Assembly: GCA_030704615.1 (NCBI GenBank)
Contig: CM060731.1
Coordinates: forward strand, 4,030,001 to 4,094,000
Source: Takakia lepidozioides
Taxonomy: Eukaryota; Plantae; Bryophyta
Direction of reading: 5' to 3'
DNA: 64,000 nt
A program made the position numbers and the translations under genes. The notes below the pieces were generated by a model. The model saw only the letters and a list, made by a program, of their open reading frames with translations. It ran no database searches and had not been told where the DNA came from. Below, in pieces: positions 15,601-42,860 of this stretch. Within the stretch, counting starts at the first letter, position 1. Every line of letters starts with the position of its first letter.

Positions 15601-18600
15601 CCCCCTGAAGGCACTGTGAAAAACAAGCTTTTATCACCTGTAGATCCTGTGCCGAAATCAAAGGATGGACGAGCACTCTGGGTGGTTGCAGGTGGAAACC
15701 CTGAAAACGAAGGAGAGGGCATTGCCTTTGGTGTCGGAGGGGGCTCCAGTAAGGCAACTGGCGGCGATGAAGGAAATGTGAAACTACCTGAGCTTGGCAT
15801 ATTTTTGGGGGACAAATCTGAGCTGGAAACATTTCCATCTGCTGTAGGGGATACCGCCTCCGAAGTGTCCGGACTACTAAATACCGGTGCAGCGATAGTT
15901 ATTGACCTGATAGCTGTGCCATCAGAGGACAGCAGTCCCGTAGCAGTCTCTACCATGGAAAGAGGGTTTGTCGTAGGGATGCTTGCATCTTGTGTACCAG
16001 TGTTCGATGCTCGACCTTCATCATCTGACAAGGATTCCTGAGTAGAACAAAAAACAATGAGCAGCCAAAGGAGAAGTGAGAAAAATGGTGAGGAGTACCA
16101 CCATGGTGAAGTAGGCAGATGCACATAATCACCTACCTTCCCTTCTCCCTTCCAAAATGCACATTGCACTTTATCACAATCTCAACTTCATTGGGCACCA
16201 GGTCTATGGCCACAAGCCTAAGACAGACGTCTCATCAGTACATTCTCTCTCTATCTGTCTCCCAAGATCAACGTACCTCAAAGACAGCACTCATCCAGAA
16301 TCCCTTCCCCTTGCCTGCAGTGGGACCAGCACCAGCAAGCACTGCATCGGTCTCTCCCGACCTTGCCACCGTCTCTTGCACATACCCTGCAGCTGTGCGT
16401 GATCGATCTACTGTATACTCTGCCATCAAGATGGTGGCAGTAAGTGCATAGATCCCTTCCCTTTCTATGCTGCCCAATAAAGTTTTTGTCTTCCTTCTCT
16501 ATTAGAGCATGCCTGGCATGATATCATGCAAAAATTAACTTTAACCTTAACTGCCAAGTTAAAGTTGGTTTAACATCCAGCGAATCTACAGAGCCTACTG
16601 CCCAATGGTGAAAGGCCAACCTTTGAGCCCCCACAGATTGTGAATGCAAGCGCCTATATACAACTACGGAACAGTAAAACTGTTGTAAACTGTGACTAAC
16701 ATACTTGTGGATCCAGCAGACCACACAGATGCTGACCTTCCTTTCACATATGCTTAGAGTAACAAATATGATGCTCGAGCACACTTAAACCTTTTAAGTA
16801 TTTGGAAATTTCACTGAGTTTTATAAAGCAATTTCGAGACTACCTGGACTTTTTGGTTGAGGCGCTACTGAGAGGCCTCCAAAAGGAACTTTGCCTTTCC
16901 CCTTGCCTTCTGTACTATGATCAGCTGCCTTCCATGGAAATCCACCAATGCTGGATGATTCAGTCCCTAAGCCTGGACGTGAAGGTCCAGCCTCTTCCCC
17001 TTGGTGGGAAGCTGGAAACTCCCAGGTCTACATAAGCAAATCACCCAAGCTGTTCACTGAAGGAGCAAGCTCAATTACAAAGAAAATTCAGAAGCAAAAA
17101 CTGTCATATACTGCAGCCCTAACAGGTCAGTGTAACTGATGATAAGCTGAAAGGTTCATACACATTGTTGTACCAACAATATCCCTACTTATCTCATGAC
17201 TGAAAATTAAGATCTTTCAAACATGTCATACACAACTTAAGGTGGATTTACATTGACATTATATTGTTACATGGCATGTAATGCAGAGTGCGCATAAGAG
17301 GACATAATACTGACTTTGACATTTACAAATACTGCATGAACTCTGTACTAGAACACAGAGAGGTTGATATATTGTAAACAACAGTGAAAGTCCATAACAA
17401 TACTAAGCACCTTCATTCGACAAAGCTGCCCGTAATATACCGCTGGCATCACGGTATGCACTGAGGGAGAACCCTGACCTGCATAGTTCGGCGAGCATGC
17501 TCATTTATCATACTTGGAGTGAGCTCAGTAGGTGGATGTTTCCTGACAAGAGCAAGTTCCTCTTCCAATGACTTGCCCTTGGGAGATGGAGTCATCCTCT
17601 CCAAAGTCTCCAAAATCTTGCGCGCCGTCTCACTAGACTGCACAGGGACACATGCAAGCCCCCTGGGTCCAGCATTCCTCCTTCTTTCCTCTTCCCTTTC
17701 GTTCTGCTTATCGCCACCAATGATGCCCCTCCCCTTGAATTGCCAAATTCAGAACCAACATCCAGTCATTATTCATGAAGCTCCTCTCTATGTTACCCTA
17801 CGATGGGCAAGAGAGCTAGAAGAGTTTCCTTGACTTCCATAACCCATAGAAGATGTCGTGGAGCAACTGAATAGCAATTTATCAAAAGAAAGGTGCATCA
17901 TTCCCTACACATCATCGAGCTTGAACTGAGCTAGCCACATACCTCTAACTCACTGACCTCCCCACCACGCTGTTTCCTGTCCATTGGTGGAATGCTAAGT
18001 GTTCTCACAGGCGGGGGTGGGTACAAGCCCAACCCTCCCCTCCTCGGCAGCCCATTGCCTGGACTTGGAGAGTACAATGAGGACCTCTGTCTTGTCCGGC
18101 GAACAGGACCACCAGAGGAATATCCGCCGTCATCCAGTGCTGTACTCCCTCGCTTCTTCACCCCCTGTCAGGTCATCATTCCAACCGATTGACAGTTTAG
18201 CCCTTTATGAATGTCAGTGCCTCTATGTGAAAGCCCAGCCAAGTCAAGCCCTGCCAAACATTAAAATGGAGATTGTGGGCATCCCAAATTAAAGCCAAGT
18301 GAAGCATGAGTACCCACCATAATGGCCGATACATGCATGGTAGGGGACCCAGCATGATATGTTCCCGGATCAACCATGCACAAAATGTCCTTATCATAAT
18401 GCAGGACAAACATAGAAGAGACATGCCCAGAACATGACATTAATTCAAATAGCAACAATAGGAGAGAAAGCTGGAGACAATGCATCAAGAGGGAAACAAG
18501 TTCAGCCTAGTCGAATTCGGTGAGTCAGCGAAGGACAGAGGGAGTACTCTAGTTGACAGTACCTCTCCCAATGAGAACTGCAGAGCCGATCCAGGTGGAG

Positions 18601-20902
18601 AGCGAGAGACAGGTGGGAGACGGCTCAACGTGTGTGGGGCAAGTGGCGTCCGCAACTTGTCTTCTACTACAACCTCTCTTATTCCCCGGATCGCCAAAGG
18701 TTGTGGAAGGCCCAGTGAACGTGCAACAGGAGGTGACTCAGGTGCAACAGAAGAAAGACCCCCAGGTGCCATCCGCAGCTTGTCTACTCTAGCATCTCTG
18801 GACATCCGCATCGAATTTCGCGTGCTTGATTGGTATGGTGAACTTCGAAGAGGGGTTGCAACTTTCTCTCTTGTGATCGTTACGCGAGAGGTAGGCCCCA
18901 CTACTCGAGTAACACGCTCACCCATATAGGCCCTAGCAAGATCTACTGGCGAAGAATCCAGACCTTCATAACCCTGGAATAGAATGGTGCAAAAGACCAC
19001 ACGCAAAGTCAGGGCAATGTGGAAATGTTAACCTCCATCAATGCAAGTCATCTTATGAGGACTTGAAAAATAAGAAATTTGAGTTGCGCGGTAAAGGTTA
19101 CCTCTGAGTTCTCCCCCAAAGAAGGTGAGCCATTCTCCTTTCCAAATCCACCAGACCAGAAAGGAGCCTTCTGTTCTTGCCGGGCTTTCGTGAGCTCCTC
19201 CCTCCACCTTTGCGCATCAGATTGGGGGCCATTGTTTGGCTGAACCTCATGACCAATAACTTGGTTAGTTGTCATGGCCTTGACGTCATGGTTCAAAGCT
19301 GCTGGCTTCTTCGTCTCCACTCCATTGTCCACCACTGCCGACCTCAAAATTTCTATCAAGCGATCAGCTTCCTCCCTGCGATTGACAGTATTATGTACAA
19401 ACAAACTTCAACCCTCAAGCAAGAATTGCAACTAACTAAAGACAAACGTCTGGCACATTCTGAAGTAGACGTGCTGGCACGGAAAAGCCAGATCCCACAC
19501 AACAACCATCTGCAAGAAGGCAATAATGGTCCTTGATGCTGTCAAGCCATCTATTGAAGATCAAGGCTTTTGTACTATGTTTGGCAATTTGGACACTACA
19601 ATCTAATTACAGCTTCCTGTTCATACATTTGTGCATTCTGTCTTCACTTGTTCGGCAAAGAGGGACATAGCATTCTAGAAGTCTTCATAGAAGGAAACAG
19701 TTTATGGAACTTCAGAAGCCTTGACCCACCAAGGAAATGGCACACTTTCCACCCAGTAACCCATGCATCCCGAATCTGATAAGTTGCTCGTGGTTGGTTT
19801 CAGGTGCTATTAATTAAGAATACAGTGGCAACTGGACATTACATTACATACTCAAGAGTCTACAACTTGTTAAACCTCCCCAGCTACTAGCAGATCATGT
19901 AACCAAAGAGCCAACCTGGGAAATATTCTCCTCTTCATCCAGCTCTCGATTTCAGAGATCTTAGAGCTGCCATCGTCCTGTCCTCTGTCTCCTTCGCCAT
20001 GGTCAATTCCAGCTTCCGTAGACTCCTGCAATAAAGGTGGCGTTCAATCTAACACATCGTTTCCAACATGCCCATGACAAACAGGAGGGAAAGGTACAGT
20101 ACATTTCATGAATTGTGCTACTTTCACCTTTTCTGAGTTAGGATAGTAATACTTTTACAGTAATTGGCGAGGGACAGCATCGTGGTCAAAATTGGGAATA
20201 CAAATGGTGTACGCCTCGGAAATCTGAAAAAGAGCAGAACAGAGTGCACAACAAACATGGTAGATTTGAGAGAGCAAAGACCTGTGGGGTAGGTGGGATG
20301 TTGGGGAGAGAGAGAGGGAGAGAGGGAGAGAGAGAGAGCATACAGCTTCAGCTGCCGATGGCGATGCTTCTGGTTGCCCATCGAGGATTTCAGCTGCGGG
20401 CACACACACAATGGGATGTCAGTGCGGTCTAGAGTTTCTGGGAGATTGGGTTACCGTTGCTAGAGATTGAGGTGCTTTCTCTTGGTGGCGAGCTAGCACC
20501 CGGCAGCCTGTAATGTAGTTCCTGCTGGATTAGCAGAAAACCCATAACGCATGCGAGCTAAGGCCACCCACCAGATGACCATAAAGAGTTCTCAAAAGGA
20601 AACATACCAGTGTTTTTCTCTCCCTCGGTGATCAAAAGTGGGAAGTCCCGGCGCCGAAACAACGAAGAGTACACATGTCCCACAAACTTTGAAGCCGACC
20701 CGATCAGACCTGACCCCAGCCATGTCCCCTTTCTTGATCCGTCTGGGGCACCAACTCCATTCATAATAGCCGCCGCCTGCGGCCCGGCTGAAGCATGCCG
20801 CCCCACTGCAGGCCTTTCATAGGGAGTGGATCGTCTAACCTTGGCCACTCTAATCTTCCCCCCGACTCCTACACCGTATGGAGAGCGGGCCTCCATTGCC
20901 AT
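12687..20902 (-). CDS. NUP1: Nuclear pore basket FG-nucleoporin NUP1/NUP136-like, multi-exon
   Basis: N-terminus MAMEARSPYGVGVGGKIRVAKVRRSTPYERP. Conserved internal blocks SSPVDLARAYMG, KKRGSTALDDG..SGGPVRRTRQR and QSSETARKILETLERM.PSPK. Long Ser/Pro-rich FG/FxFG region and C-terminal basic motif RKIFKAKR. Internal exon boundaries were not all resolved. Confidence 0.9.
12977..13005. repeat. (CTG)n microsatellite encoding polyQ in NUP1
   Basis: Uninterrupted ctg/gct run, translated as QQQQQQQQQ on the minus strand. Confidence 0.9.
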
Positions 20903-21786
20903 TCTCGCAACCGCCTCCCCCGTCTCCTCCTCTCTTTCTTTCTTCCTCCCTCCCTCCCTCCCCTCTCCTAACCCTTGACTAAGCCACTCAGCGTCGCGCA
21001 GGCTAGGGTTACCCCGAGAGAGGAGACCCATCCCCGCGCATGACCCAATACCGTGCATATAGATAGCTATGGATGTTCTACACAAGCTTGCTCTCTATTC
21101 AAGTTTCTCACAGGCTTGTAACGTTGATAAGAACATTGGGATTTTTTTGAGAGGAGAGGGGAGGAAGCCCTGACTTTCAAAGGGAGGCAACAACTATAAG
21201 GAAGCAAATGGAAGAGGTAATACAGGATCATATGCACTATGTACTCGTTGAAGAAGAGCAACTGAGCCTGAAGTACTTGGAGGGAGAGGTTGAAAGTTCA
21301 GATGTGCTTTGACCTTTGGGTTTGAATTTTTTTCTATGCAGCCAATTTTTTGTTTTTTATTTAAGAGAATTCTTTCCTCAGAAAATCATAGTATTAGTGC
21401 AACAACAAAGACGGCTGGTTTGGTATATAAGAGTTCCAATAGCTAGATGAGGAAGAGAATAGGACTCAAGAGGAAGTGATTTACTAAGAATTCCACCCAA
21501 CCATAGGAATTAAACAAAAGACGTTGTTCCATCCTCCGAGCTCTCCCCTATTCATACTCAAGGCCCATGTCAACAATAGTTGAGATAACTATAACTATAA
21601 CTATAACTTCTTCTTTTTCATTTTTAGCATATGGACCCCAAGAGGAGATTTGCCTGCTTACACTAGCCACCATCCTTGTGTGTCTCATGTGTGTCATACA
21701 TGCAATATAAACTTGTATCATATGGGTAGTATGAACTATTACTGTTATGGTATTAGGGACATTTTCCACATACCAGCTGGGTCTAA

Positions 21787-24465: not shown

Positions 24466-26243
24466 CACTTGAAGAATCGTAAACATCAATGCATTTTTTT
24501 ATCCTAAACCATCATAAGAAAGCACAGGTTCCAGAATGCTTCTGGAGTGTGAAAGAGAAGGATAAGAAAATTGGTTCTTCTAATTTCAGTCCCAGTGAGG
24601 ATGGAAATGCTAGCTTTGGCAATACACGAGAAGGAGATACGATTGGCGCCTGAATTGAAGGGTCAATTGACGATACTTGAATTGTGTATTACACGAAAGC
24701 GAGGAGGGTGTATCGTGGTTGCACTTCAAAAGAAAGGGATATGGGGTATGAAGGAGTCCCCCATCAGAAGGGTACATCAGGCTAAAGCCCGGGCGGATCG
24801 AGCGGCGATGAGAGCAGCTCGTCGAGCGCTGATAGCCGCCCAGCTGGCTAAGCGGGGAGACCACTCCATCATTTTTACCCAGCGGACCCCGCCGCGGCGG
24901 TGGGCCGCGGGTTATGCTGTTACCCGCGGGGTACCGCGCCAAGGACCGCTGGTCCTTGGCCATGGACTTTTGAGGGTGGCGCGGCGCGGATATACGTATC
25001 ATACATACGTGCCATGTAAGCAAATACATACCTGACTGGCATATATGACTAGCATAGTGGTTATGACCGATGTCCAAGATGACATGGCCTTTACATCAGC
25101 ACTAACTTGCAGTCACAAATGGCAGATCTCACGGCCAAACAATCATAAAAGCTAGTCATAAAAGCCGCAAACTGTTGTTGTGCCATGTGGTCTATCAAAC
25201 TACTAGGGTATGTTGGACTATCACGCGATAGAGACCCATGACTGTCCACAATGATAATATGCCACATGTGGTATGGGCAGATTTATATGTATCTATGACC
25301 ACACATCGACAGTTGCCAATGCTTTGAACGGTTATAAGCATGTTCCATCTAGTATGACACTATACCTTTTTAAGATGAAGAATGTTTATATAAAAGTAGA
25401 ATGTTGAAACTTATGCTCTTAAATGCTCTAAATATTGTGCCACAAAAATTAAACATGGGTATTACTAGAGGTATGGGTACTACTAGAGGTAGCCGGAAGG
25501 TGAAGTGGCCATTACTTACGCCGGCTTTGGCCGCAATCTTCTCCTTCTATTTAGGTACTAGAGAGATCCAATGACATCCTCAAGCTAGACTTGAAGAAAA
25601 AGTTGATATGGAAGCTTGAATAATAAAAGCTTTGATCATTATCCTAAAGAGAGAGAGAGAGACTCCGGCCATAACCAGCGTAACTCCGGGCCACTTCACC
25701 AGCTTTATGCTACTGTCCCTTTTCGGGAGTGGGCCATATAACACCATCTTATACATGTAGGAGACGGATAAGCTCCAATTTGGAGCGATGCAAAGAGGAA
25801 AAGGCCATCTCGGCTGGTGTAACAAAGAGTCACTTTACCTTAAATCAGTTACTGCCCTCTTTAAGGGAGCAATGCATCAATGTTGGGTGCCGTTGGGTGG
25901 TTATTTCCATTGCTAAAAAATATAAGCAACATCTGTTACTCTTAACAACATCGATCATCTAAGGACTTCAAAACTTTGGTCAACATTTGTGTCCCATTCG
26001 CAGATTTTTGTCAACACTTGTTTGAACTATTAATGCATTGCAATACCAATGGTTGTATCTACCATGTTCTATATAGTAAAATCAACTAGTGTGTATCGAA
26101 AACATATGGTGGAAATGACATCTTGGTCTCTATATCGGTTCTACGTCAATTTCATGTATTAAACTAGATTGGGCGCTCCCCCAAATAACTACTTTTGTTG
26201 CGCACCTCTCTTTCGTAAACTCTCATTCAAATCATAGCTACTC

Positions 26244-26330
26244 TGTCGTGCACCTAAGCATCGTGCCACAACATACATCGCTGTCCACCATACATTCTAA
26301 GCACACAATCCTAGAAAGCTATGCCACAAT
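26244..26330. repeat. Terminal repeat Y, outer copy (87 bp)
   Basis: Matches 26698-26784 with 2 substitutions. Confidence 0.95.
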
Positions 26331-26695
26331 GATAATGAAAGTGAACACAAGGGAAACACTTCACTCATGAATCCACTCAATCACATAAACTAAGTCAAGC
26401 CAAGGGCACCCTTGCTAAGGGAATCCACCCTACAAAGCCCTCAACACACTCCCTCTCAATACCTAGAGCTATGGAGGTGAGAGAGGCTCATGGAGGCTCA
26501 ACTACAAGAAGATGAGCCCTCCTCAACGCTCACAAGGAGAAAACCCATCCCCATGTCCCAAGTGAGGTTTGACACCTCACTTGGTATGTGAGACCAAATG
26601 AAGTCCCAACACACAAAATGCAAATATAAATATCCAAAATGTCCTAGTTAACTAGAAGTAGGTAATTCTAGTTAACCATGACTAAAACCATGACA
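26330..26695. repeat. Terminal repeat X, inner copy (366 bp)
   Basis: Matches 42495-42860 with 8 substitutions by manual alignment and no indels. Confidence 0.95.
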
Positions 26696-26697
26696 AC

Positions 26698-26784
26698 TGT
26701 CGTGCACCTAAGCATCGTGCCACAACATACATCGCTGTCCACCATACATTCTAAGCACACAATCCTAGAAAGTTATGCCGCAAT
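26698..26784. repeat. Terminal repeat Y, inner copy (87 bp)
   Basis: Direct repeat of 26244-26330, separated from X by the dinucleotide AC (26696-26697). Confidence 0.95.
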
Positions 26785-27037
26785 CGCCCACCTAGCTGGT
26801 GATTAGGTCCCTCTACCGGATAGCTGACAAGTATCCATCTCAATAAGATCATCGTTTGGTCTTCAATCGCACATGTCCCAATTTTTTAAAGTATATGAAT
26901 CAAGAGGTCAGGTGCAACGAGAGCCCCATCGTTGATCGCCTACTTGCAATCCATGATCTTCAATTGAGTATCCATAGCGTTGAGCTCCTACAAGCTAGAC
27001 CTTGGATCACTTGTCAACTCCACCATTGTCATGCCCA

Positions 27038-28429
27038 CTACATATGTCCAAGGCATCGTGGACACAACCATTCTCCACTAGGAACCTCCTCAAGTGGCGG
27101 TGTCAAGCATCCCATGTGCCACCCGCTTGGGCATTTGTCACACACCAGCATGGTTACGGCACCACCAGCATGCCCACATAGCATGCAACGCAACCCTGCA
27201 GGTACCACTGCAAGGTTGGGATCTATCATCCCATCCACATGTGGAAGGTGACATGGCGTACAATTGCGCACATGGTCCTTCCATACCATGCCATCTCGAC
27301 CCTCCAGAATCAACACTCCTGAAGGCAACACCTCCCGGACCCTTAGAATCACATGCCCTGCTGTGACATCCAAAGTCGTAGGCGCTGTCTGCTGCAGATA
27401 CACATAGTCCCCAGGGTGGAAACGCCGAACACCTGGCCGATATCCCCCTCCACGTACAGTGACATACCTCAATGTGTCTCGGTGTTGGGCAATAGCAAGG
27501 TTCTCAAAAGCCATAGGCATGACTCTCTTGAACAACTCTGCCCGCTGGGCACATGCTTGTGTCCACACATCCGGATCATCAAGGTTGAGGACTATTGCAG
27601 TCTCCCTGCGAATAGATGCAGACAAATGTGGATCTCGGCGAAAGAGAAGGAAATAAGGTGAGAATGAGGCAAGTGAAGCTTGTTTGCTGAACTTATAGCC
27701 CATAGCTAGCCAAGGCAGCTGAAGGTCCCAATCTCCTAGGTGTCCCTTCTGCAAACCGTACTTGCGCAAATCTCTCTTGACTGTCTGAACAACTCTCTCC
27801 GCCAAGCCATCAGCCTCGGGATGATCCCGAGAAGTAGTGCGGTGATCTATCAAGGCTTGCTCATACAAAGCCTGAAACTCCCCCAAGAATTCTCTCCCCT
27901 GGTCCGTGAGTACCTTGGCTGGAGCACCAAAATGGCTAAGCACTCGATCTAAGAATGCATACACAGCCCCTTCACTTGCCTTGTCAGGCAATGCCACCAG
28001 TTCAATCCATTTGGAGAAGTGTTCCACCATCACCAGCACATACTTGTTATGGCGAATCATCAGTAGCAATGGGCCTGCGAAGTCAAGACTCCAACGATAG
28101 CCCAAACCCATAATGGGTAAATGATGCAATTGTGGAGTAGGGGCGTTGAAAGAAGCCTGCACTCTATCACACACCATGCACCTTGCCACTAACTGTTGCA
28201 CATCCGTGTGCATGCCCCGCCACCAATACTGCCCTTGCAGCAAACTATGAGTGCGCCGCACCCCAAAATGTCCCAACTCCTCATGGGCATGGCGTATCAA
28301 TCGCGCTCGTTGTGTTGGATGAGGGACAATTCTCACTCGTCCATCCTCCCATACCCGGAGTAGGTGAGTCCCTTCCCACTTGAACCTCTTGGCTTGTTGT
28401 AGGATCCGATCTCTTTCCTTAGCAGTCAC
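27038..28429 (-). CDS. Retrotransposon DDE integrase with C-terminal PHD finger
   Basis: HHCC zinc motif (HAHEELGH...CMVC) and catalytic SLDFAGP / LTDQGREF / ADGLAERV. C4HC3 PHD finger CMLC..CDKC..WHMGC..WLCPRC at 27053-27187. Confidence 0.95.
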   Translation of the reverse strand: MTAKERDRILQQAKRFKWEGTHLLRVWEDGRVRIVPHPTQRARLIRHAHEELGHFGVRRTHSLLQGQYWWRGMHTDVQQLVARCMVCDRVQASFNAPTPQLHHLPIMGLGYRWSLDFAGPLLLMIRHNKYVLVMVEHFSKWIELVALPDKASEGAVYAFLDRVLSHFGAPAKVLTDQGREFLGEFQALYEQALIDHRTTSRDHPEADGLAERVVQTVKRDLRKYGLQKGHLGDWDLQLPWLAMGYKFSKQASLASFSPYFLLFRRDPHLSASIRRETAIVLNLDDPDVWTQACAQRAELFKRVMPMAFENLAIAQHRDTLRYVTVRGGGYRPGVRRFHPGDYVYLQQTAPTTLDVTAGHVILRVREVLPSGVLILEGRDGMVWKDHVRNCTPCHLPHVDGMIDPNLAVVPAGLRCMLCGHAGGAVTMLVCDKCPSGWHMGCLTPPLEEVPSGEWLCPRCLGHM

Positions 28430-28504
28430 ACTGGCTGCTGTCTCTCATGTACGAAGGTAGGCCAACACTGCTGCATCTTCATGCACATCCTTAGCACCAC
28501 TAAG

Positions 28505-29929
28505 CTACTCACTGATATCTGGATCGTCATGCACACCATCTACTTGACCAATGCTATGGGATGGACCAGCTTGAGCTCCCATTGCTAGGATGCACAAAAA
28601 GACAGATGCATGCCATCCTGGCACCATCTCCTCATCTGTCTCACCATGCCACCGAGCTCCAGTATCATCATGCTTGCTCGTGCATGGATTACGACTCAAT
28701 CCATCTGCATCCCGATTGACAATACCGGCTCGATGCACCACCTGGAAGTCGTACTCTTGAAGCATAAGTGCCCATCGTGCAAGCTTCCTTGTAAGCTTGT
28801 CTGACTCCATCAACCACTTCAATGGTTGGTGATCCATGACAAGGGTGAAGAGATTGTTGTAGAGGTAGCATCTGAAATGTGCAACTGCCCATACCGTAGC
28901 TAGACATTCCCCTTCATATGAACTATACTTTGTCTCGGCATCATTGTTCGAGCGGCTAGCATATGTCACTACGAACTCTCTTCCCTCATCATCCACCTGT
29001 GTGAGCACTGCTCCAATCCCCAGTATACTCCAATCCGTATGTAGCTGGAATGGCCGCCCCCGAATAGGCCGCCTCAGAATAGGTGCAGAAGTCAATCCAG
29101 CCTTGAATTCCTCAAAGGCTTCCTCCTGTTCCTCCTCCCACTGCCACTCCTGACCCACCTTGGTCAACTTGGTAAGAGCCTTTGCAATGGTGCTAAATCC
29201 CTTGACAAACCGTCGATAGTAGTTTGCCAACCCCATGAAAGCATGAACTCTGCTAACATCTACGGGGCGTGGAATGCGTGCAATGGCCTCCACCTTCATC
29301 TTTTGAACACCCAATTCTCCAGGGTATATCATGTGGCCCAAATACTCAATCTGGTTGTGGAAGAACTTGCACTTCCCAGGGTGCAATTTCAACATGTGCG
29401 CTCTCAAGCGCTCAAACACCACCTGAAGGTGTCTCTCATGCTCCTCAACCGTAGCACTAAAGACGATGATGTCATCAATGTAGCACCAGGCGAAGTCTAG
29501 CCCCGCAAGAATCCTATCCATGACCCTCTGAAACTCTGTAAGAGCATTCTTCAGGCCAAACGGTAAGAACCGCAATTGGTACAAGCAATCCTTCCCATGA
29601 TGATCAATCCCCCAGAATGCCGTCTTTTGCTTGTCAGCCTCTTTGATTGGCAACTGGTGGTAACCGGATCGCAAGTCCAATGTGCTAAACACCTTTGCAT
29701 GCCCAATGGCATCAAAGATCTCCTCTGGAGTTGGCATGGCATATCTATCGGACTTAGTCTGACGGTTCACATGACGATAGTCCCCACACATCCTTCTTTC
29801 TGTCCAATTGCCATAGATATCCTTCTTAGCTGGCATCACCGTTGCCGAGGCATACTCCCCGCCTGACAACTCCACCAATCCAGCTTCGAGCAACTCCATA
29901 GTCTGTGACTGGATCAATGACCTCTCCAT
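28505..29929 (-). CDS. Ty3/Gypsy-type reverse transcriptase and RNase H
   Basis: RT motifs RMCGDYR, FSTLDLRSGYHQ, LPFGLKNA, YIDD and YLGH. RNase H motifs LHTDWS, EGECLA, DHQPL and ADGLSR. Separated from neighbouring domains by disrupting lesions. Confidence 0.96.
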   Translation of the reverse strand: MERSLIQSQTMELLEAGLVELSGGEYASATVMPAKKDIYGNWTERRMCGDYRHVNRQTKSDRYAMPTPEEIFDAIGHAKVFSTLDLRSGYHQLPIKEADKQKTAFWGIDHHGKDCLYQLRFLPFGLKNALTEFQRVMDRILAGLDFAWCYIDDIIVFSATVEEHERHLQVVFERLRAHMLKLHPGKCKFFHNQIEYLGHMIYPGELGVQKMKVEAIARIPRPVDVSRVHAFMGLANYYRRFVKGFSTIAKALTKLTKVGQEWQWEEEQEEAFEEFKAGLTSAPILRRPIRGRPFQLHTDWSILGIGAVLTQVDDEGREFVVTYASRSNNDAETKYSSYEGECLATVWAVAHFRCYLYNNLFTLVMDHQPLKWLMESDKLTRKLARWALMLQEYDFQVVHRAGIVNRDADGLSRNPCTSKHDDTGARWHGETDEEMVPGWHASVFLCILAMGAQAGPSHSIGQVDGVHDDPDISE

Positions 29930-30532
29930 GTCACTATACCGGTAGGGCCTTCAAAAGATTGGCGTATCACTTGCCAAATCAATACAAATCTCCTGACCCT
30001 TCAAACTCCCAAAATCCTTCAAACCGAAGGCAAAGCAATTTCTATAAGCCCTTAGAAATCGCTGGATCCTCCGTCTCTCCTCTCCGGTGAATGTAGGTCC
30101 AACATCTGGTTCCCAATTGTCCTCAGTGACTGCAACCTTAGGTACACCACGCTTGGAGGTAGGAGATGAATCCTTTGGTTGCTAGATAGCAACCTCTTGG
30201 GCCTTGTCCGCCCAATCTGACTATGGCGTAGCCTCCACTTGCTCCACCATAGCCACCTTGAGAACTTCCTCTGAGCAAGAAACATTCTCAACCTCTTCAA
30301 AAACCTTAGTCACCTTGGCCTCCAACTGATCCTCAGTGTATGGCTCTCCCCACTCCTCATACTGCTGCTTGAGAGATCTAATGACTCTCTCTTTGCGCAT
30401 CTCATCCCACATCTGCCATGGGTGTTTGCACCCCATGATCTTGTGCTTGCCCCCACTCACTGCCTCCACTGTCCCGGTTGGCAGAGATGATGCAATATCT
30501 AATGGAAGTGCAGAAGTAGCCACCAATGCTTG

Positions 30533-31497
30533 CAATCTTCGTTGTTCAGCCATGCACAAGCCAATGACCCATGTCAAGCAATTGAGATCCATTGCTTGAC
30601 CCAACACCTGGCGTCGTGATGCCTCTGACAGAGCTGGCACAGCTGTAGTGCCCGTGGCAAACCCCATTGCCCGCTCGCACTCATCCGCATTGGGCTCCAC
30701 CAATTGCTGTAGCACACTGTCCCAAATCAACCCAGGACCATTGTCTCGAAAAGCATGAGATGAGGGAAAGCTCATGAACGTAGGCAAGGTTGTACGTGGC
30801 TGCCCCACTCGATTGACCACTACTAGAGGTGGATGGTCATCATGTCGCACCCTCTGTGGTTGCCTCCCTTAGTCCAAAATGCCCTCAACCGTGAGATTGG
30901 GTGGCCGTTGAATGGAATCATATGCTCTCTTGAGCGGCTCTGGTGGTGCAAGATTGCTCCACCACAATCGAGGTCGATGCGTGCGTGATCCCACCGCTGC
31001 TGCATCCAATAGCATCGCCGATCCAATCCAAGACCGCACCTGATGCACACTGGCCATAACCCTGGCCCGAGAGTCCCCCATAAGATGAACATTCTCCAAG
31101 ATATAGGCTAAAGGTGCTTTGTCTGCAACTCACGCAACACTCTCAACATCTCCCAAAATAAATGCGATCGTGCATCATGGAAGCCATTCCCATGACTTGC
31201 GGGAGAGTGTCCCTGGCAAGGCCATCCAGCTATCACCAAGTCAATGGCACCATGCCGGTCCAAATCATCTGCCCCCAGCATGGTAATGTCTGCTGGCAAG
31301 GCCTTTTGGTACCCTTGAATTGCTGAGAGAGGCAGCAACTCAGGGTACTGGTGTGTGAGCAAGGCAACGTGGCGCATAGAAATACGCCGAGCTATCTCAT
31401 CCTTCTCCTCATACAAGTATTTTTATACTTTAATCCCAGCTTGCAACACTCCTGCAAGCCCAGTGCTCATGCCTCCAAACAGGTCTAGCAAACAAAT
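30533..31497 (-). pseudogene. C5 cytosine DNA methyltransferase domain (DNMT3-like) inside the retrotransposon pol, disrupted
   Basis: Motif I LLDLFGGMSTG, motif IV DLVIAGWPCQG (PC at 31221-31216), motif VI YILENV, motif VIII HRPRLWWSNL, motif IX ECERAMGF.TGTT and motif X RRQVLGQAM, all in canonical order. Stops at 31423 and 30869, and one frameshift near 31110. Confidence 0.93.
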
Positions 31498-31879
31498 CCC
31501 TGAGTCAGGTGGTTGCCAGGTAATGGGCACTGTGTCCAAAAGAGCTAACTGAGGAGGTCCAAGTGATGTCACTAAACTCCCCTCACTCACCAATGGAAAT
31601 GCCTCTTGCCATGCTTGGTGCACACACTCGCATGCTATTCGATGCAAATTCCCAACTGTACCCCACAGTGGAATATGAACAGGCACATGAGGAAGCAAAT
31701 CAGCCTTGTATACCAATTGTTTGTCCTTATCAGGTGGTGGCCTATCATCTGCATGGCTATTGCCTTCCAAGAGCTCACCACCCCAAGCCACCACCCCTGA
31801 GAATGCAGCCAATGTGGGCATCATGTTCCTATGATCCACCGCTATATTCCCAATAAACCGCACTGGGAGCAGTGCACGT

Positions 31880-32215
31880 CGACCATCCCCTGACTGCCAT
31901 TCCGGCATATAGGATGTCGTTTCCTCCCAAAAGTCCAAAGTAAAGCCCATCGGGTATAACACAGCCCCACCAACAAGCACATCATAAGACATCGCGTCCG
32001 TAACAATGGCTTTAGCTCTCATGACTGAGCCATCCGTAGGATGATCCGGCTGCAATCGAATGAAGAGCTCATGGCGTGTAATCCCTCGTGCCTTCTCTGA
32101 ACCGCCCAAGGATATTGAATTTGGAAAGGGCAAGGCTCCAAATCCGCCTCTGTAAGGCCCAAGCCTGCAATTGCTGCTCTTCCCAAAATCAATGGCTGTG
32201 CTCCTGACTTGCAGA
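31880..32215 (-). pseudogene. Degenerate retroviral-like aspartic protease
   Basis: SGAQPLILGRAAIAGL near 32165-32207, where the catalytic D of D-S-G is apparently lost by a deletion. SYDVLVGGAVL matches the C-terminal D-x-L-x-G protease motif. Confidence 0.7.
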
Positions 32216-32825: not shown

Positions 32826-34146
32826 CTAGCTGGGCAAGCCTATGTCATGACCTTGACCGTGACCCTGTGCTCCTTGGTTTTGGTTACGCCCTCCACCACG
32901 ACCTCTGTCTCCTCTACCTCTCTGGACTACATTGCCTCGTCCTCGGCCACAATTGTTCCTTTGGAACTGGCCTGGCTGTAGCTCAGGATGCAAGTCATAA
33001 CGATGGGTCTCTTCATGCCCATACTTGCCACAATGCCTACACTCTAGTTGTGTAGGCTGTGCCTGTGCCGGCCCTTTGCCTCTCTCCGGGAAATCTCTCT
33101 TAAGATGGGGTCCTCCACAATCCCAACATGTCACTCCCGACTGTTGTTGGCCTGAGAATGAAGGAAGTGACCTCTGCAATTGAGATCATCTCTGTCCTTC
33201 CCTGGCTTCGCCTGAGCCCCTTTGTTGCCTTGATCACGTTGGGGTAGTGGTTGTTGTTGGCTAGGAGCCCCACTTCGTTGTGTCTCCTTACCAAACCCCA
33301 CCATGACCACTCGCTCCTCCACCATATTGAGCTCTATCCGCTCTGCCAGCAAAAACACGTTTGCTAAGGTGGGTTGGGCCACTTGTAGGAGAGTTGCATC
33401 CCACACCCTTCTCCTCAACTCCTTGTCCAAAATCCCATACCAGAATTGGACTGCTTGAGCTTCCGTAACCCCTTGGGTTACATTTATCAATCGCCTCATG
33501 CGCGTGTAAGCCTCCCTTAAACTCTCGGCAGGCTTTCGTCGGAACTCTTGCAAGCTCTGCAATTTCTCCGTCCTTATCCCCTGGTAATTTCTCCTTAACT
33601 CCTCGAAGAACTCCACAACTGGGTTAAAGGCAGGCACGGGTGTTGGTGCTGCAGCAAGAGCTTGGGTGGACTTCCCAGCTCCTGTTCCACTTGACGTCCC
33701 ACTGCTGCTTGCAGAAGCTGCCGGTGTAGCTGCCGGTGTTACCACTGCCCTTGTGCCTCTAGTGATGGAGACATAGTCAGGTGACCAATATACCCGCCAT
33801 TCCTCAATCTCCACCTCATGTCCCCGCCTAAACTCATGGTAGTCATCCATAGGCGGCCCCTCAAGGTGCTGAAACAGCCCCTTCCATGCCATAAAAGGCG
33901 TAAACAGTTGTGGATTGCGCATCTACTGCAAATCACACCAACTATCAAACTCCTGTATGAAATCATCAAGCACGATGGTGCCCACAGCTCCAGAGTACCG
34001 ACGTGGCCTCTTGGTAGCTCCATACGTTTCCTCCATCGTATCCCACAACAATGGCACGGAAATGGCTTGCACCCTCGGCGAGAATCCTCTTAACTTTGAG
34101 TCTGAACCTTCCTCAGAAGACACTGAAGGTGAAGGTGGCCTAAACC
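32826..34146 (-). pseudogene. Retrotransposon gag with two degenerate zinc knuckles
   Basis: LDDFIQEFDSWCD, EKLQSLQEFRRKPAESLREAYTRMRRL (retrotransposon gag core), and knuckles CWDCGGPHLKRD and CRHCGKYGHEETH. The frame continues for about 30 codons on the far side of the nested insertion (40037-40125). Confidence 0.85.
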
Positions 34147-35074
34147 CCTGGGGGGTGCACTCCTCATTAAATGTACCAGGCACGTGTGTGCACAGGAGGG
34201 AGTATTTTAAACCCCCCCATGTACAACATTATATATATAGAGGAGGGTTTGAAACACCTTAAATATAATTTTACAGGAGGGAGTTGTTGAGTTTTAAGGG
34301 GTAGTGTAGTGGTAAGAGCAACGTTTAGGCCGCGACTCACTGCGAGATCAAATTGCGGGATCTTCTTTTTGTTTTTTTTTTTTTTTTTTTCCTATCCGCG
34401 ATCTTTCTCCCCTTCCCTCCCGCGGCTTTCTCTTTTCCCTCTCCTCCTCTCCCGCGATCGCCTTCCCTTCCGCGGGCTTTCTCTTTTCCCTCCTCTCCTC
34501 TCCCCTCCTCTCCACAGGGCATGGTATTCTTCCTGATGTTTACAAGGTTTAGGGGAGAGTGAGCTTGGTCTTAGCATGCCATTTTGTGGTGGTTTCTCAA
34601 AGACCAATCCGACATTATCTGACTACAGACACCAGCAGCACACCGAAGCGATCCTTTTGGGTTGATGGGAGGGCAAATCCTCCATGGGTCATGACACAAG
34701 GTCAAGGACAATGTGGTGAGGGCACCTTCTTCTTCGACCTATTTCAGCCTGTCTTGCCCTCTCATCAGAGTCGGCCCTGAAGTTGCAGCACTGAGCAGAC
34801 CTGGCATGAGTTTTTAGAAGATTGACAATGGTGGGACAACTGCAATCGCAAGGTGTGGCGTTTTCTTAAGGTAAGAATTTTTTCCATCCTGCTATTGCAG
34901 GCTCTTGCCTCCTGTTAGTACCTGATTTGGTATTCTTCCAGATGTTTACAAGGTTCTTGGGAGAGTCAGCTTGGTCTTAGCAGGCCGTGCTCAGCTGCAA
35001 CGTGGTGGTTCTCACTGACCAATCCGTCGTTACCTGACTACAACACAAGTAGGCACACACAAGAGATCCTCTTT

Positions 35075-36510
35075 TGATCTCAGTCCAAACCAGGAAGTGG
35101 TCAGAGGTACCAATATCAGTTCTGTCGATCAACACATTGGCACACTGGGGGAACAAATTTTTGTCCATTATGATATAGTCCACAATGGAACGTTCCCCAG
35201 TTTGGGATTTCTCACGAGTCCACTGCACTTGGTCACCTGCAGTTGAAGTCCTTGCCCTTGGTTGTCTTCCTAGAGCGCCCCATTGAATCACCAATGACTA
35301 AGACCGCTTTCCAGCCAGTCAAGGGATGAACTTCTTTGAGATTGAATTGATGTGGGACTCTATTAGAAGCACTTTTGGTCATTGCAACCTTCAACGTACA
35401 CATGTTATCAATGAGAGAACCCCGGACAGTGTATCAGAAAATGAGTACTGTCTTCAGATTGCCCACACAATGGGAAGTGCACTCTCCCTTTCCTCTCTGC
35501 TTCTGTTTGCTGTTCAAAGGTAGGCTTCCTGCCCTGAGTTTAAATTTCAGTCTAGTGCCGAGAGTGGGTGGACCCTTGAGGTCATCCAAGATGTCCTCCC
35601 CCATGTCACTGACTGGAAACAAGTTCAGGGAAGTTTTCTGCCTAACTTCATTTTCATCAGACAATCTCATGGCAACAGACATGGCTTTGGACACTACAGC
35701 CTCTAAGTTGGATTTATCCAACAGGGTCAAGACTTGCGGATCCAGGTCCAGGTCCTTGAGAATCTCTTCTACTCTGGTGTTGGGAAAACACCTTTGGATC
35801 TCAGTCCAAACCAGGAAGTGGTCAGAGGTACCAATATCAGTTCTGTCGATCAACAGATTGGCACACTGGGGGAACAAATTTTTGTCCATTCTGATATAGT
35901 CCACAATGGAACGTTCCCCAGTTTGGGATTTCTCACGAGTCCAGTGCACTTGGTCACCTCTTGTCCTGTTATTCAAGGTCAAAAGCTGAAGCTTTTCCAG
36001 ACAGTTAATTAACCGTCTGCCATTAGAATTCAGCTCGTCCTCACCAGAAGGCCCAATGATATCATCCTGATGGAGCCCTTTGCCCACCCGGGCTTTTGTC
36101 TGCGTCAGCACTAAGGGTCCCCTCTGTGGGCATGTAAGCACAACCCACAAAGAGGTCCTTCGTACTCATGCCGCCCTTCAGATTCAGTTTAGCCAGATAC
36201 TATGCTCGTACCTCAAACCCTTGTTGATAATTTCACAATTGTCAAACAAGAAATCACAGACAAAGAATCCAACCCCTTTTTGACCGCATTTGGCAGAGGC
36301 GCCTTGAGAGTACACATCTTACCTGCCCATTTATAATCATTGACATCTCCAACCAGTTTATCCGACGTTTCCCATGTTTCTTTCCCAACACAGATATGAA
36401 TATCATTAGTCCGAAGAACTTGTCCCACTTTGAGTTGTTTCCTTTGGTTGGTCAACCCTGAGAAGTTGAAAGTGGCCAGCTGCAATCCAGCCCTGTGCAT
36501 GTGAATTGTT
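35075..36510 (-). pseudogene. LINE ORF2 fragments: AP-like endonuclease and C-terminal Cys region, RT missing
   Basis: LATFNFSGL, ICVGKETWE, NSNGRRLINC..LLTLNNR, SIVDYI and GTSDHFLVWTEI (APE motifs, the last segment duplicated), followed by GTRLKFKLRAG...CTSHC. Confidence 0.75.
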
Positions 36511-36949
36511 TGTCGTCTAGGTAGCTTGTGATTGCTCCTATACGGCCAACCGTTCTGCAAAGGGGGGACAGTTACCCCATGGATTCAACCTCATCCAGAG
36601 CATCAAACCGATTAGAAACTCTCAAGTTGAAGTCCTTGCCCTTGGTTGTCTTCCTAGAATGCCACATTGAATCACAAATGTCTAAGACCACTCTCCAGCC
36701 AGTCAAGGGACGAACTTCTTTGAGATTGAATTGATGTGGGACTCAATTAGAAGCACTTTTGGTCATTGCAACCTTCAACGTACCCCTGTTATCAAGTCTC
36801 GAGATGGAACCATTAGCCATGAAATCCAAGCCTAAGCTAGAGCATGTAGTTTTAAAGATATAGAGTCGATGTTTCCAAGATATAGAGTCGATTAACTTAG
36901 GATATCTGGTGTTGGACATATGTTGTAGCTGACCCCACCATCTGACCTT

Positions 36950-39320
36950 TGAATTCATTTGTGTGCGTTTGCAGTGCGTGTGCAAGCCTGCAGCCATGGA
37001 AAAGGGCAAAGAGGTGCATGGTTGCATCACCAAAGCTGGAATTGTACCGGATGTGATTATGAACAATACTTTTGTGGACATGTATGCCATTGTGGGAGCA
37101 TTGAGGATGCGGAGGGAGTGTTCAACACTATGGCTGAATGAGGTGGTGTCGAGGAACACGATTCATCCAAGAGGTCGATTTAAGACACAAGATTACTTCT
37201 GATTCCCTGCGGATCAATAGCTACAAGAAAACTGCGTGGGTAGATGGTCAACTGGAAACAGCAGCGGCAACAGTGCATTTGGTAGGACAAGGCGCTGCTA
37301 ATGAAGGTACCTTCTTCAACACATTTCAGCCTGTTTTTCCCTGTTATCAGAGTTTTTCCCTGTTTTTTCCTGAATGAGCATGGATAGAGTGTGGGTCCAG
37401 ATTCATCCAAGAGGGCTGGACTTCAAGCTCCAGATTACCTTGATTCCATGTGGGGGTCAGTAGCTACAAGAAACCTGCATGGGTAGATGGTCAACTAAAG
37501 GCAGCAGCTGCAGCGGCACAGTTGATAAAATCAGGCACCTCAACCATGACCAGAGCTTCTGAAAGAGGATCAAGAGAGGGAGTCCACAATGCCTCTTCTG
37601 GCACTTCTGGGCATGTGAAGATACTTTGTGCGACAGCCTAACAGAGGCTCTACAGACTCTAAACCAAGCAGGCAGTTCAGCAGATTCAGATATGTATGTC
37701 TGTCTCTTGCTTAAGTGCATCAAGATGGAAGGTCTCAAAGCTGGAAAGCAGGTGCACACTCACATTATCCAAAGTGGATTCACGCCAAATGTTTTTCTAC
37801 TCAACACCCTTGTCAACCTGTATGTTAAGTGCCGGAACATCAGGGATGCTCACCAAGTGTTCAACAAAATGCCTCAATGATCTTTGATCACGTGGAATAT
37901 TATGTTGAAAGGATTTACCAAGCATAGGTGTGGTAGGAATGTTTTGGAGACATATGAGCAAATGATGTGCGAAGCGGTGAAGCCCAACCACATCACATTT
38001 GTTTGTGTTTGCAATGCGTGTGAAAGCCTGGGAGCAAGCTGGAATTGTACCAGATGTCATCTTGAACACTGCCCTTGTGGACATGTTTGCCAAATGTGGG
38101 TGCGTTAAGGATGTGAGGGGAGTTTTCAACACTCTGGCTGAACGAGATGTTGTGTCGTGGAACGTGATGCTTGCAGGGTATGCACAACAAGGGCACGGGA
38201 TGGAGGCTTTGGAGACCTATGAGCAAATGATGGGGGAAGGGGTGAAGCCTAACCAAATCACAAGGCATTTCACCAGATTCAGATATGTATGTCTGTCTCT
38301 TGCTTAAGTGCATCAAGATGGAAGGTTTGGAAGCTGGAAAACAGGTGCATACTCACATCATCCAAAGTGGATTCACATCAAATGTTTTTCTACTCAACAC
38401 CCTTGTCAACATGTATGTTATGTGCGGGAGCATCATTGATGCTCACCAAGTGTTCAACAGAATGCCTCAACGATCTTTGATCACGTGGAATATAATGTTG
38501 GCAGGATGCAATGCGTGTCCAAGCCTGCGAGCTCTGGAAAAGGGAAAAGAGGTCCATGGTGACATCGTCAAAGCTGGAATTGTACCAGATGTCATTCTGA
38601 ACACTCCCCTGGTGGACATGTATGCCAAATGTGGGTGCATTAAGGATGCGAAGGGAGTTTCCATGGCTGAACGAGATGTGGCGTCGTGGAGTGCGATGCT
38701 TGCAGGGTATGCACAACAGGGACGTGGTATGGAGGCTTTGGAGACCTATGATCAAATGATGGGGGAAGGGGTGAAGCCCGACCACATCACGTTTGTGTAC
38801 ATTTGCAATGCGTGTGCAAGCCTGTCAGCTCTGGAAAAAGGAAAAGAGGTCCATGGCGACATTGTTAGATTTGCAATTGTATCAAATGTCATTCTGAACA
38901 ATACCCTCGTGGACATGTATGAAGGGAGTGTTCGACGGTATGGCTGAACGAGATGTGCTATCGTGGAATGCGATGATTGCAAGATATACACATCAAGGGC
39001 GCGGGATGGAGGTTTGGAGACCTATGAGCAAATGATGTGCGAAGGGTTGAAGCCCGCGCTTTGCATTGCATGATGTTGAGGAAGAGCTTAAAGAATCGTC
39101 TCTTTGCCACCACAATGAGAAGCTGGCCATTGTTTTTGGGCTTATCAACACACCCTCTGGGATGTCTTTGGGGATCATCAGGAATCTTCGGATGTGTGGT
39201 GATTGCCACACAGCCACCAAATTCATCTCAAAGATAGCTAAGCAAGAGATTGTTGTACGGGATGCAAACCGCTTTCACCACTTCCAAAATGGTGTTTGTT
39301 CTTGTGGGGAGTATTGGTGA
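36950..39320 (+). pseudogene. Scrambled DYW-PPR pseudogene captured in the Pack element
   Basis: Multiple frameshifted L/S/P motif fragments ([41 protein letters not shown]) fused directly to a truncated DYW domain [20 protein letters not shown]...CGDCH...CSCGEYW (39066-39320). The P2-L2-S2-E region is deleted. Confidence 0.92.
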
Positions 39321-40899
39321 AATGAAATGCTTGTCACCTAATTGAATGTATTGAACTCTGTCAGCTGCGAGTCAGGTTGGACTCCTACAGTGGCAGCAAA
39401 GGCGCACGAAATCTCTTTTTGGAGAGGAATTCTCAACAATAGGTTTTGAACATAATTGGACCTTGCGAAGGTTGAAACTATAGACCAAGTTCAGAAACTG
39501 TCCTAGTTGATGAACAGAGGTGCAATGACTAGGTTTTGATGGTCTTCAAGAGGGTCACTCTCTGATGAAAATACCCAGGACTGTATATCAGAAAATGGAA
39601 ACTTTCTTCAGGCCTCTTGCACATCGGGCATTGACAATGTCCCTTTCCTCTCTGCATCAAATTATTGTGCATCTGATTATTGTTCAAAGTGAGATTCCAC
39701 AACAAGTTTTATCGAGGGCAAACAATTTTTTTAAATTAATTTATTAGATTTTGTTCTATTTTTAAATGAATAAACTTGATATAATATAAAAACATACATA
39801 TACATATTTGAGGGTATTTTTAATTATTGAAAAGGGAAATATACATACAGTAGGGGGTACTTTTTTAAAATTACAAATTTCTATATATTTACAGGAGGGG
39901 GTTTTATAATCTTCAAAATGTATGTACAGAGGGGGTATAAATGATCCAAGGACCCGTATACATGGGGTTTTTTAATTAGGCGGCGAACGCACGTGATACG
40001 GACATTTTATAAAGAGTGCACCCCCAGGCCTAAACCGCACACCTCGTCTTGTATACCCACTAGTATCGCTGGAGCTCGTACCGGCACTCTCCTCAGCAAC
40101 TGGTGGCACCTCCGTGTTGAAAACTCACAACCACACATGTCGTAAACCTGTCTCTAATCCCCCTTTCCACAAGATAACCGGGTAGAGAACCTGTTGCGGC
40201 TTATGGCTTAGACTACTAGGTTCGTAACATAAACCTGCACCTGCATCCACCGCAAGCACTCCTATGGTCTGCTGGTCATCAACCCAGCCTTACCATAAGA
40301 GAAACAATGATGGTCTGATTGGTCATCACCCCAGCTTCACCACCGACAGCACGCTCTAGGATTGACCGGTGATCAGATCCGGACCAACCTCCTATGAAAA
40401 CAAGCGCCCACACAAAGCTAACATGGCGCACAGTCAAGCATGCAGGTGTGGAGGGGATCCAAACACAAGAAAATCAAGACAACAACTCCCCCACACCAAG
40501 AACACTCCACAGTGTCGCTCCTGCAATGACACCCTAGCCCAAACCCGAACTGACTCTTGCCTCCACCTACGGAAAAGTTTTGGCCTACAGAGAGGGTGAA
40601 AGACTACAAGGAAGAGAGACTAAAGCAATTCCTAATCCCAGCATGCCTTCATCCCACTACCCTATCTCCACACTCTCTTGCTTGAACAATAGACAAGACT
40701 ACCTTTCAAGGGTCTCTCAAATAACTCTCCAGGAGCCCTCAAGAATATGTTTCTCAAACAATCTTACTAAGGCTCCCAATCCTTGCACAATGGGACTCCA
40801 AAACAGTACACCATGGCCCCAAGAGCCTGCCAAAACTTAGCCCTCGAGGACCCCAAATAGTCCCTCACACAAGTCGCCAAAGACTCCTCAAGCTTGCCA

Positions 40900-42494: not shown

Positions 42495-42860
42495 TGATAA
42501 TGAAAGTGAACACAAGGGAAACACTCCACTCATGAATCCACTCAATTATATAAACTAAGTCAAGCCAAGGGCACCCTTGCTAAGGGAATCCACCCTACAA
42601 AGCCCTCAACACACTCCCTCTCAATACCTAGAGCTATGGAGGTGAGAGAGGCTCATGGAGGCTCAACTACAAGAAGATGAGCCCTCCTCAACGCTCACAA
42701 AGAGAAAACCCATCCCCATGTCCCAAGTGAGGTTTGACACCTCACTTGGTATGTGAGACCAAATGAAGTCCCAACACACAAGATACAAATATAAATATCC
42801 AAAATGTTCTAGTTAACTAGAAGTAGATAATTCTAGTTAACCATGACTAAAACCATGACA
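42495..42860. repeat. Terminal repeat X, outer copy (5' end of the retroelement)
   Basis: About 98% identical to 26330-26695, ending CATGACA followed by ACTC. Confidence 0.95.

Follow-up and report, generated by a model that had tools for sequence, protein, structure and literature searches.

The window analysed here, a stretch of 64,000 nucleotides of Takakia lepidozioides DNA, contains a Ty3/gypsy element of 16.6 kb (10.7 kb without a nested insert), which runs on the minus strand from 42860 to 26244, begins with TGTCATG and ends with CACGACA. The region around the element contains genes: the 3′ exon of Prp3 (46372–51077) is about 3.5 kb away, and the other gene neighbours are two PLS-type PPR-DYW genes (1159–3099 and 53414–55684) and a neurobeachin/BEACH-type gene (56629–62538). 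On the minus strand at 12687–21094, the translations also look by eye like exons of a nucleoporin gene with FG repeats (Nup1/Nup136-like), with no Pfam match.

Read along the minus strand, the domain order of the element is gag-PR-DNMT-RT-RH-INT-PHD. The gag part with its zinc-knuckle-like region is broken (approximately 32826–34036) and is followed by the aspartic protease region (approximately 31900–32200); in ORF1 of the relative L007, the match to Asp_protease_2 lies below the Pfam cut-off. The catalytic motifs of a DNMT3-like C5 cytosine methyltransferase are visible at approximately 30620–31500 (PF00145, E = 1e-10), in a broken frame that has two stops (31425 and 30871) as well as a frame change near 31120. 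The reverse transcriptase and RNase H (28505–29950) share their frame with the integrase, with stops at 29953, 28507 and 28447. Finally, the integrase frame (27038–28444) encodes an HHCC zinc finger, the D-D-E core motifs, a beta-rich C-terminal domain and a PHD finger, and is matched by Integrase_H2C2 (E = 2.6e-17) and rve (E = 4.3e-13); no Chromo Pfam match was found in this frame of this copy. The AlphaFold model of the window integrase (16 rows) had a pLDDT of 56, and the fold search was done in its place with the L007 integrase model (pLDDT 81), which matched the PFV and Ty3 integrases, integrases alone being present among the matches listed. With stops in gag, DNMT and pol, plus the frame change in the DNMT, this copy is dead. 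Two sequencing runs, guessed to be RNA, cover the element patchily and at low depth, a pattern not used here to argue for or against its expression.

The repeats of the element are split, in the order A1 ... polypurine tract–B1–2 nt–A2–B2, all on the minus strand. Repeat A1 (42495–42860), which forms the 5′ end of the element, is identical to A2 (26330–26695) at 358 of 366 positions, and B1 (26698–26784), which ends with CACGACA, is identical at 85 of 87 positions to B2 (26244–26330), which forms the 3′ end. A polypurine-tract-like stretch adjoins B1 (26785–26800) and the 2-nt spacer follows it (26697–26696). The element is flanked by a 4-bp target-site duplication, ACTC on the plus strand (26240–26243 and 42861–42864). 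Two separate solo LTRs are ruled out by this matching duplication and by the same layout in relatives.

A 5.9-kb insert is nested at or just before the start of gag (34147–40028). It resembles a non-autonomous DNA transposon, having terminal inverted repeats (39 nt at 77%) and an 8-bp duplication, and carries pieces of PPR-DYW pseudogenes as well as endonuclease-like fragments, parts which are very deeply covered in host contigs. As a Pack-type carrier, the insert could help editing-type PPR genes to spread in the host plant.

The PHD finger and its predicted ligand

Translation of 27053–27187 (minus strand) gives a stop-free, 45-residue C4HC3 finger which has all eight ligands and ends with CPRC. 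Pfam PHD (PF00628) matches it with 40.5 bits (E = 2.7e-10) against a cut-off of 24, and the finger ends 4 residues ahead of the stop of the 468-codon integrase frame. The first-pass annotation had placed an intact C4HC3 finger at the integrase C-terminus, where chromoviruses carry their chromodomain, and both its identity and its terminal position, in one frame with the integrase, are borne out. At E ≤ 0.001 the finger is matched by 87 PDB sequences, the best 60 of which include CHD4, PHF12, KDM5 PHD1, BHC80, AIRE, UHRF1, DPF, BAZ1B/2, KAT6, TRIM24, ATXR5 and ORC1b, while no ING, BPTF, TAF3 or DNMT3-ADD entry is found among these 60. The integrase-PHD join is no accident: in a highly redundant collection of 80 related metagenome loci (20 clusters at 90%), found with patterns from the integrase core and then ranked against the entire frame, 72/72 loci that extend to that position have the finger after the integrase. 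This is a true PHD, typical of its element family.

It could be argued that the element retains the PHD from its algal ancestors as a neutral passenger, as this copy is dead and the fingers of many relatives have lost ligands through decay. However, two near-intact relatives, L007 and L011, give dN 0.092 and dS 1.98 over 55 PHD codons, i.e., a dN/dS of about 0.05, similar to that of RT and INT, and the finger is present in every testable locus; a passenger is hardly credible against this evidence. For the DNMT of the same pair, dN is 0.166 and dS 1.38. On these values, PHD and DNMT are both under purifying selection.

The roles of PHD residues in H3-tail contact (A1 pocket, R2 aspartate and K4 contacts) were mapped on KDM5A PHD1 (10.1101/715474) and compared in 17 fingers of the near clade and 91 others. 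Since the alignments of the window finger with KDM5A/B PHD1 are gapless, the KDM5A residue roles map directly onto it. The pocket for H3 A1 is kept in the near clade (P in 16/17, G in 15/17 and W in 17/17, all present in the window), and so is the aspartate for H3 R2 (17/17, including the window finger). On the other hand, the equivalents of KDM5A D292, E305 and D306 are Ala, Ala and Val in the window, and the acidic K4 wall is found in 0/17 near-clade fingers versus 60/91 elsewhere. The mean net charge is +2.0 in the near clade versus −3.6 in the rest, the window's own finger having −1. In fingers that read methyl-K4, the tryptophan is located two positions before the His ligand. This position is Gly in the window and Trp in 1 of 108 family fingers, and H3K4me3 reading is rejected on account of this missing aromatic-cage residue, whose role in methyl-K4-reading fingers has been described (PMC5415848).

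Judged from these residues, the window finger resembles readers of the unmodified H3 tail (KDM5A PHD1/BAZ2A type) in its A1 and R2 pockets. As the two pockets are kept whereas the K4 wall and the tryptophan are missing, the finger is predicted to grip a free H3 N-terminus through A1-R2-T3, with little K4 read-out in the near clade. Such a grip would tether the intasome to nucleosomes via the free H3 N-terminus, helping to steer new copies onto chromatin. The earlier description of the PHD as a chromatin reader, from a class that commonly reads the methylation state of H3K4, is thus upheld only in part: the likeness to unmodified-H3 readers agrees with it, but K4-state reading is doubtful in the near clade, because the acidic K4 contacts of the KDM5A/BAZ2A type are missing from all of its fingers.

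The same residues allow a different reading, in which the finger of the land-plant clade has exchanged histones for another partner, be it DNA, a host protein or a protein of the element; it might, for instance, help the integrase to hold the circle junction or linker DNA. The loss of the acidic wall throughout the near clade and the positive mean charge of its fingers would suit this shift, and BAZ1A-PHD, which is without such acidic residues, binds DNA (PMC5636791). Indeed, acidic-contact loss and basic charge may mean that histone binding is weak or does not occur, which counts against the tether. Yet the A1 pocket and the R2 aspartate persist in the very sequences that have lost the wall, and the net charge of the window finger is negative. 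We consider a shift of ligand unlikely, albeit the alternative that deserves the most weight.

PHD and DNMT across the element family

Among the metagenome loci, PHD is present in 28/28 testable loci whose upstream part encodes a DNMT (a further 5 such loci end too early), and a DNMT is present in 30/34 loci with at least 3.5 kb upstream, the exceptions being L004, L069, L077 and L080. A protein search with the integrase tail returned 62 proteins, 58 of them annotated with PHD, a proportion biased by the PHD contained in the query itself, and a word search with the DNMT region returned 4 proteins including the query. The protein survey rests instead on a DNMT-only selection, namely the best 150 of 2,956 representatives retrieved with the L007 DNMT. 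PHD is found in 41 of the 43 proteins of this selection that reach the integrase tail plus 60 residues, P0125 and P0160 having a DNMT without PHD. Conversely, P0028 has PHD without DNMT (protease-RT-RH-INT-PHD), and P0025 and P0031 have PHD and no DNMT between RH and INT, their upstream parts being incomplete. Far from being absent from most DNMT-bearing copies, the finger accompanies the DNMT as a rule of this element family, as judged from the sequences surveyed; these counts are not independent, because the family members share descent. The pairing of the two domains in one element, as put forward in the first-pass annotation, is seen across the family; the DNMT of this copy is broken.

The best 29 of the 45 PDB matches of the intact L007 DNMT are DNMT3A/B/C, and the catalytic residues C, E and R-x-R vary little or not at all across 35 aligned sequences. 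The domain occupies two different positions within the family. In the window, L007, P0011 and Klebsormidium KFL_009030040 (P0061), it precedes RT, and these members stand together on one side of a branch with SH-aLRT 94 in a quick integrase tree of 71 rows with a midpoint root only. In the other members, Chlamydomonas eustigma (P0057) among them, it follows RNase H and precedes the integrase (hereafter type B). A single frame contains the DNMT and the integrase in 42 relatives (40 clearly), the DNMT being placed after RNase H and ahead of the integrase or immediately ahead of the integrase, and a DNMT-INT-PHD product is possible in these one-frame relatives.

Other features vary as well. Motif IV of the DNMT is often GWEC, not GWPC, in the L024-type subfamily and in most type-B proteins, and in P0029 the DNMT-like region lacks the motifs. 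Type-B relatives (P0082, P0013, P0125, P0059; 52 long tails) continue past the PHD with a Tudor/chromo-like domain and an adenine-methylase-like region containing PFAG-like and SPP-like motifs, assignments with weak Pfam and Atlas support (the Atlas search of these tails gave scores of 0.81 only).

In the window subfamily, a conserved stop lies between DNMT and RT. The window has an in-frame TAG (30184–30182, minus strand) and then CAA-CCA, a CAR-YYA read-through context (30176–30184 as a whole). L007 consists of two frames, Gag-PR-DNMT (1,369 codons) and RT-RH-INT-PHD (1,047 codons), with one in-frame TAG between them; the junction of L011 is the same, and no other stop separates DNMT from RT in either of these near-intact relatives. 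Where the junction can be seen in the near clade, 20/20 loci have a stop with CAR-YYN after it (18 TAG, 2 TAA), which is in frame with RT in 17 of them, the 3 offset cases all being decayed copies. Strict CAR-YYA occurs in the window, L007, L011 and L020; the L001 group has CAA-CCC/T after TAG, and 15/20 near-clade junctions have this form, which is not strict CAR-YYA. Across all loci, CARYYA follows 21 of 10,952 TAG triplets.

A junction TAG arisen through decay is ruled out on two grounds. Between subfamilies, the upstream flanks are unalignable (15–24/60 identical, which is the background level) whereas the junction 9-mer keeps 5–9/9. Moreover, no variant at 5% or more is seen at 30176–30184 in host-family contigs (two runs, 427 and 26 contigs), unlike the nearby stop at 30223, which is replaced in about 97% of the depth in such contigs. 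The stop is not universal, being absent from the L032 subfamily, P0011 and Klebsormidium P0061, which run through the junction.

The window junction matches exactly the TMV-type sequence rule UAG-CAR-YYA, the CAR YYA signal giving about 10% read-through in vivo (PMC2754532), and the stop is likely leaky by this rule. Most ribosomes would stop after Gag-PR-DNMT, and a minority would read through to RT-RH-INT-PHD. With Gag-PR-DNMT abundant and RT-RH-INT-PHD scarce, the DNMT would be packaged at the Gag level and INT-PHD at the Pol level. Because a conserved and likely leaky stop separates them, DNMT and PHD would act at different steps rather than as one unit.

This bears on the proposal of the first-pass annotation that the element converges on the logic of DNMT3-ADD. 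In such a coupling, the PHD would sense H3K4me0 and recruit or activate the element DNMT at the integration site. The co-occurrence of the two domains fits this mechanism as well as it fits shared descent, and thereby weighs against our own reading, as does the stop not being universal; the purifying selection on both domains and the conservation of the catalytic residues are likewise in keeping with it. Coupling would be more plausible in type B, which has an acidic finger and a DNMT immediately followed by INT-PHD. In the window subfamily, however, the stop stands between the domains; furthermore, the DNMT has no fixed position within the family, each domain is found alone in some members, the best PDB matches of the finger contain no ADD, the K4 contacts are missing in the near clade, and shared descent reduces the independence of the co-occurrence counts. 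ADD-like coupling is therefore improbable, and the claim of convergence is not sustained. The term reader-writer describes the element as a whole, but probably does not describe how it works.

We favour instead, with a probability of a little under 60%, the reading in which the window contains a decayed copy of the KnitGypsy-Dnmt3 kind, whose PHD is likely to anchor the integration complex at the free N-terminus of H3 and whose DNMT3-like enzyme would act on cDNA. The DNMT would methylate the element cDNA in or after the particle and would not be switched on by the finger; methylation of cDNA has been proposed for retrotransposon DNMTs (PMC5890265).

Replication and integration

The 12 nt directly after A1 (42483–42494, minus strand) are a perfect complement to 42678–42667 inside A1 and constitute a predicted self-priming site. 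Self-complementarity of 12–20 nt at this place, with differing sequence, is present in three subfamilies (L001, L032, L036, L038, L056, L075 and the window); it is clear in 7/11 copies, ambiguous in L002, L040 and L042, and absent in the truncated L016. In the L032 type, the priming complement is found ~32 nt after a TATA box. The window geometry is that predicted for self-priming as described for Tf1/Tcn1, the Tcn1 clade being known to self-prime (PMC6317226). The element RNA would thus prime itself as in Tf1 and, with the purine tract placed before B1, standard reverse transcription would yield a linear cDNA bearing a B-NN-A repeat at each end.

The split layout A1..B1-A2-B2 is common to the window, L032, L038 and L056. 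The B1-A2 spacer is 2 nt in 20/20 pattern-matched cases and, by eye, in the other two of the 22 examined, and the A2-B2 join is variable: among 18 far-subfamily loci, it is blunt in 6, lacks 2 nt in 7 and takes another form in 5. Exact 4-bp duplications flank 5/7 copies with both ends resolved, L075 being excluded because its start is unresolved; the duplication matches at 3/4 positions in L056 and at none in L038. Three of the five, L002, L036 and L040, are of a short integrated form, A-internal-B, which could derive from one-repeat circles or from later B1 × B2 recombination.

The two forms, A-int-B-NN-A-B and A-int-B, can be viewed as circular permutations of two- and one-repeat circles, respectively, opened at CA-NN-TG. 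The constant 2-nt spacer and the variable A2-B2 join fit circle ligation followed by a cut at CA-NN-TG, and the repeat junctions suggest integration from LTR circles. The integrase would open one- or two-repeat circles at the internal CA-NN-TG, which would give the two integrated forms seen. LTR circles are normally regarded as dead ends, and circle opening at an internal CA-NN-TG is IS3-like.

A more tentative proposal, possible but well short of probable, is that a whole green-lineage gypsy clade combines Tf1-like self-priming, a DNMT3 placed at the Gag level by a leaky stop, pre-methylated cDNA circles opened at CA-NN-TG, and aiming by the PHD. If true, a DDE integrase of retroviral type would integrate from circles, the methyl mark would be in place before landing, and the life cycle of a widespread green-lineage gypsy clade would have been undescribed until now. 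Among the new points, the read-through stop, the self-priming and the circle-type ends lend themselves better to testing. The conserved stop predicts the DNMT:integrase ratio and bears on what retrotransposon-borne DNMTs methylate, the repeat anatomy predicts integration from LTR circles, and the near-intact natural relatives L007 and L011 supply domains for testing such predictions.

Relation to known systems

In DNMT3A/B, a single chain contains the ADD and, next to it, the catalytic domain, which the ADD autoinhibits. The window element resembles these enzymes in that one genetic unit encodes both a PHD-type fold and the catalytic domain of a DNMT3, but its finger lies about 1,150 codons downstream of the DNMT, past the stop and likely protease cuts, and belongs to another class, like the KDM5/CHD4/BAZ fingers. 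Chromoviruses carry a chromatin-reader module at the same integrase terminus and, in the Tcn1 clade, self-prime (PMC6317226); the window element differs in its PHD in place of a chromodomain, its split repeats and its DNMT. Reader and methyltransferase modules are also united in one LTR element in EpiLTR (10.64898/2026.05.21.726589). There, however, they are a chromodomain, DAM and a DNMT4-sister enzyme, instead of PHD and a DNMT3-like domain, to which type-B relatives add, on weak evidence, a Tudor-like and adenine-methylase-like tail.

PHD-bearing integrases had been attributed to Selgy elements in the first-pass annotation. The paper that defines them (Neumann et al. 2019; PMC6317226) gives an average of 5,044 bp, a tRNA-Ala primer site and no extra domain; the word PHD is absent from its main text and the Selgy row of its supplement has no extra polyprotein domain, so this attribution finds no support there. 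The window element shares with Selgy as described the status of a non-chromovirus Ty3/gypsy of a seed-free plant and the 4-bp duplication, but differs in its length, its self-complementary priming site, and its DNMT and PHD. Membership of Selgy is rejected, as neither the tRNA-Ala site, nor the ~5 kb size, nor the lack of extra domains applies to the window element.

REM1 has a PHD plus a chromodomain in a separate antisense frame. REM1 and Gypsy-7a_cRei, gypsy LTR elements of Chlamydomonas whose PHD has been proposed to guide insertion (PMC6673714, PMC9940879), are the printed precedents for PHD-bearing elements, and PHD in retrotransposons is known also from bioRxiv 2021.11.30.470311. REM1 and Gypsy-7a_cRei are likened to the window element by description; Gypsy-7a_cRei has an intergenic bias, and no DNMT appears in its figure legend (PMC9940879). 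For the family of the window element, the literature covered, which lay outside subscription papers, theses and Repbase entries, yielded no report of a PHD paired with DNMT3, of the read-through stop or of integration from circles.

The closest described system is KnitGypsy-Dnmt3 (de Mendoza et al. 2018), which has a DNMT3-like domain in gypsy pol before RT, DIRS-like repeats and a DNMT under purifying selection; expressed in yeast, this domain gave no methylation, an outcome that the authors call inconclusive (PMC5890265). The name 'Gypsy-DNMT3' of streptophytes is used in a preprint (10.64898/2026.05.21.726589). The word PHD is absent from the text and three supplement files of PMC5890265. 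The window element shares with KnitGypsy-Dnmt3 the DNMT3-like domain before RT, the DIRS-like split repeats and a DDE integrase, and has its domain order and integrase clade (SH-aLRT 94, quick tree) in common with Klebsormidium P0061, a partial model that ends before the PHD position. It differs in its host, a land plant with editing-type PPR genes, and in the stop that splits DNMT from RT-INT, whereas P0061, P0011 and the L032 type are continuous. By these sequence features, the window element is of the KnitGypsy-Dnmt3 kind, a stop-split variant within the family, and its PHD-DNMT pairing extends both the described element family and the known PHD-bearing elements.
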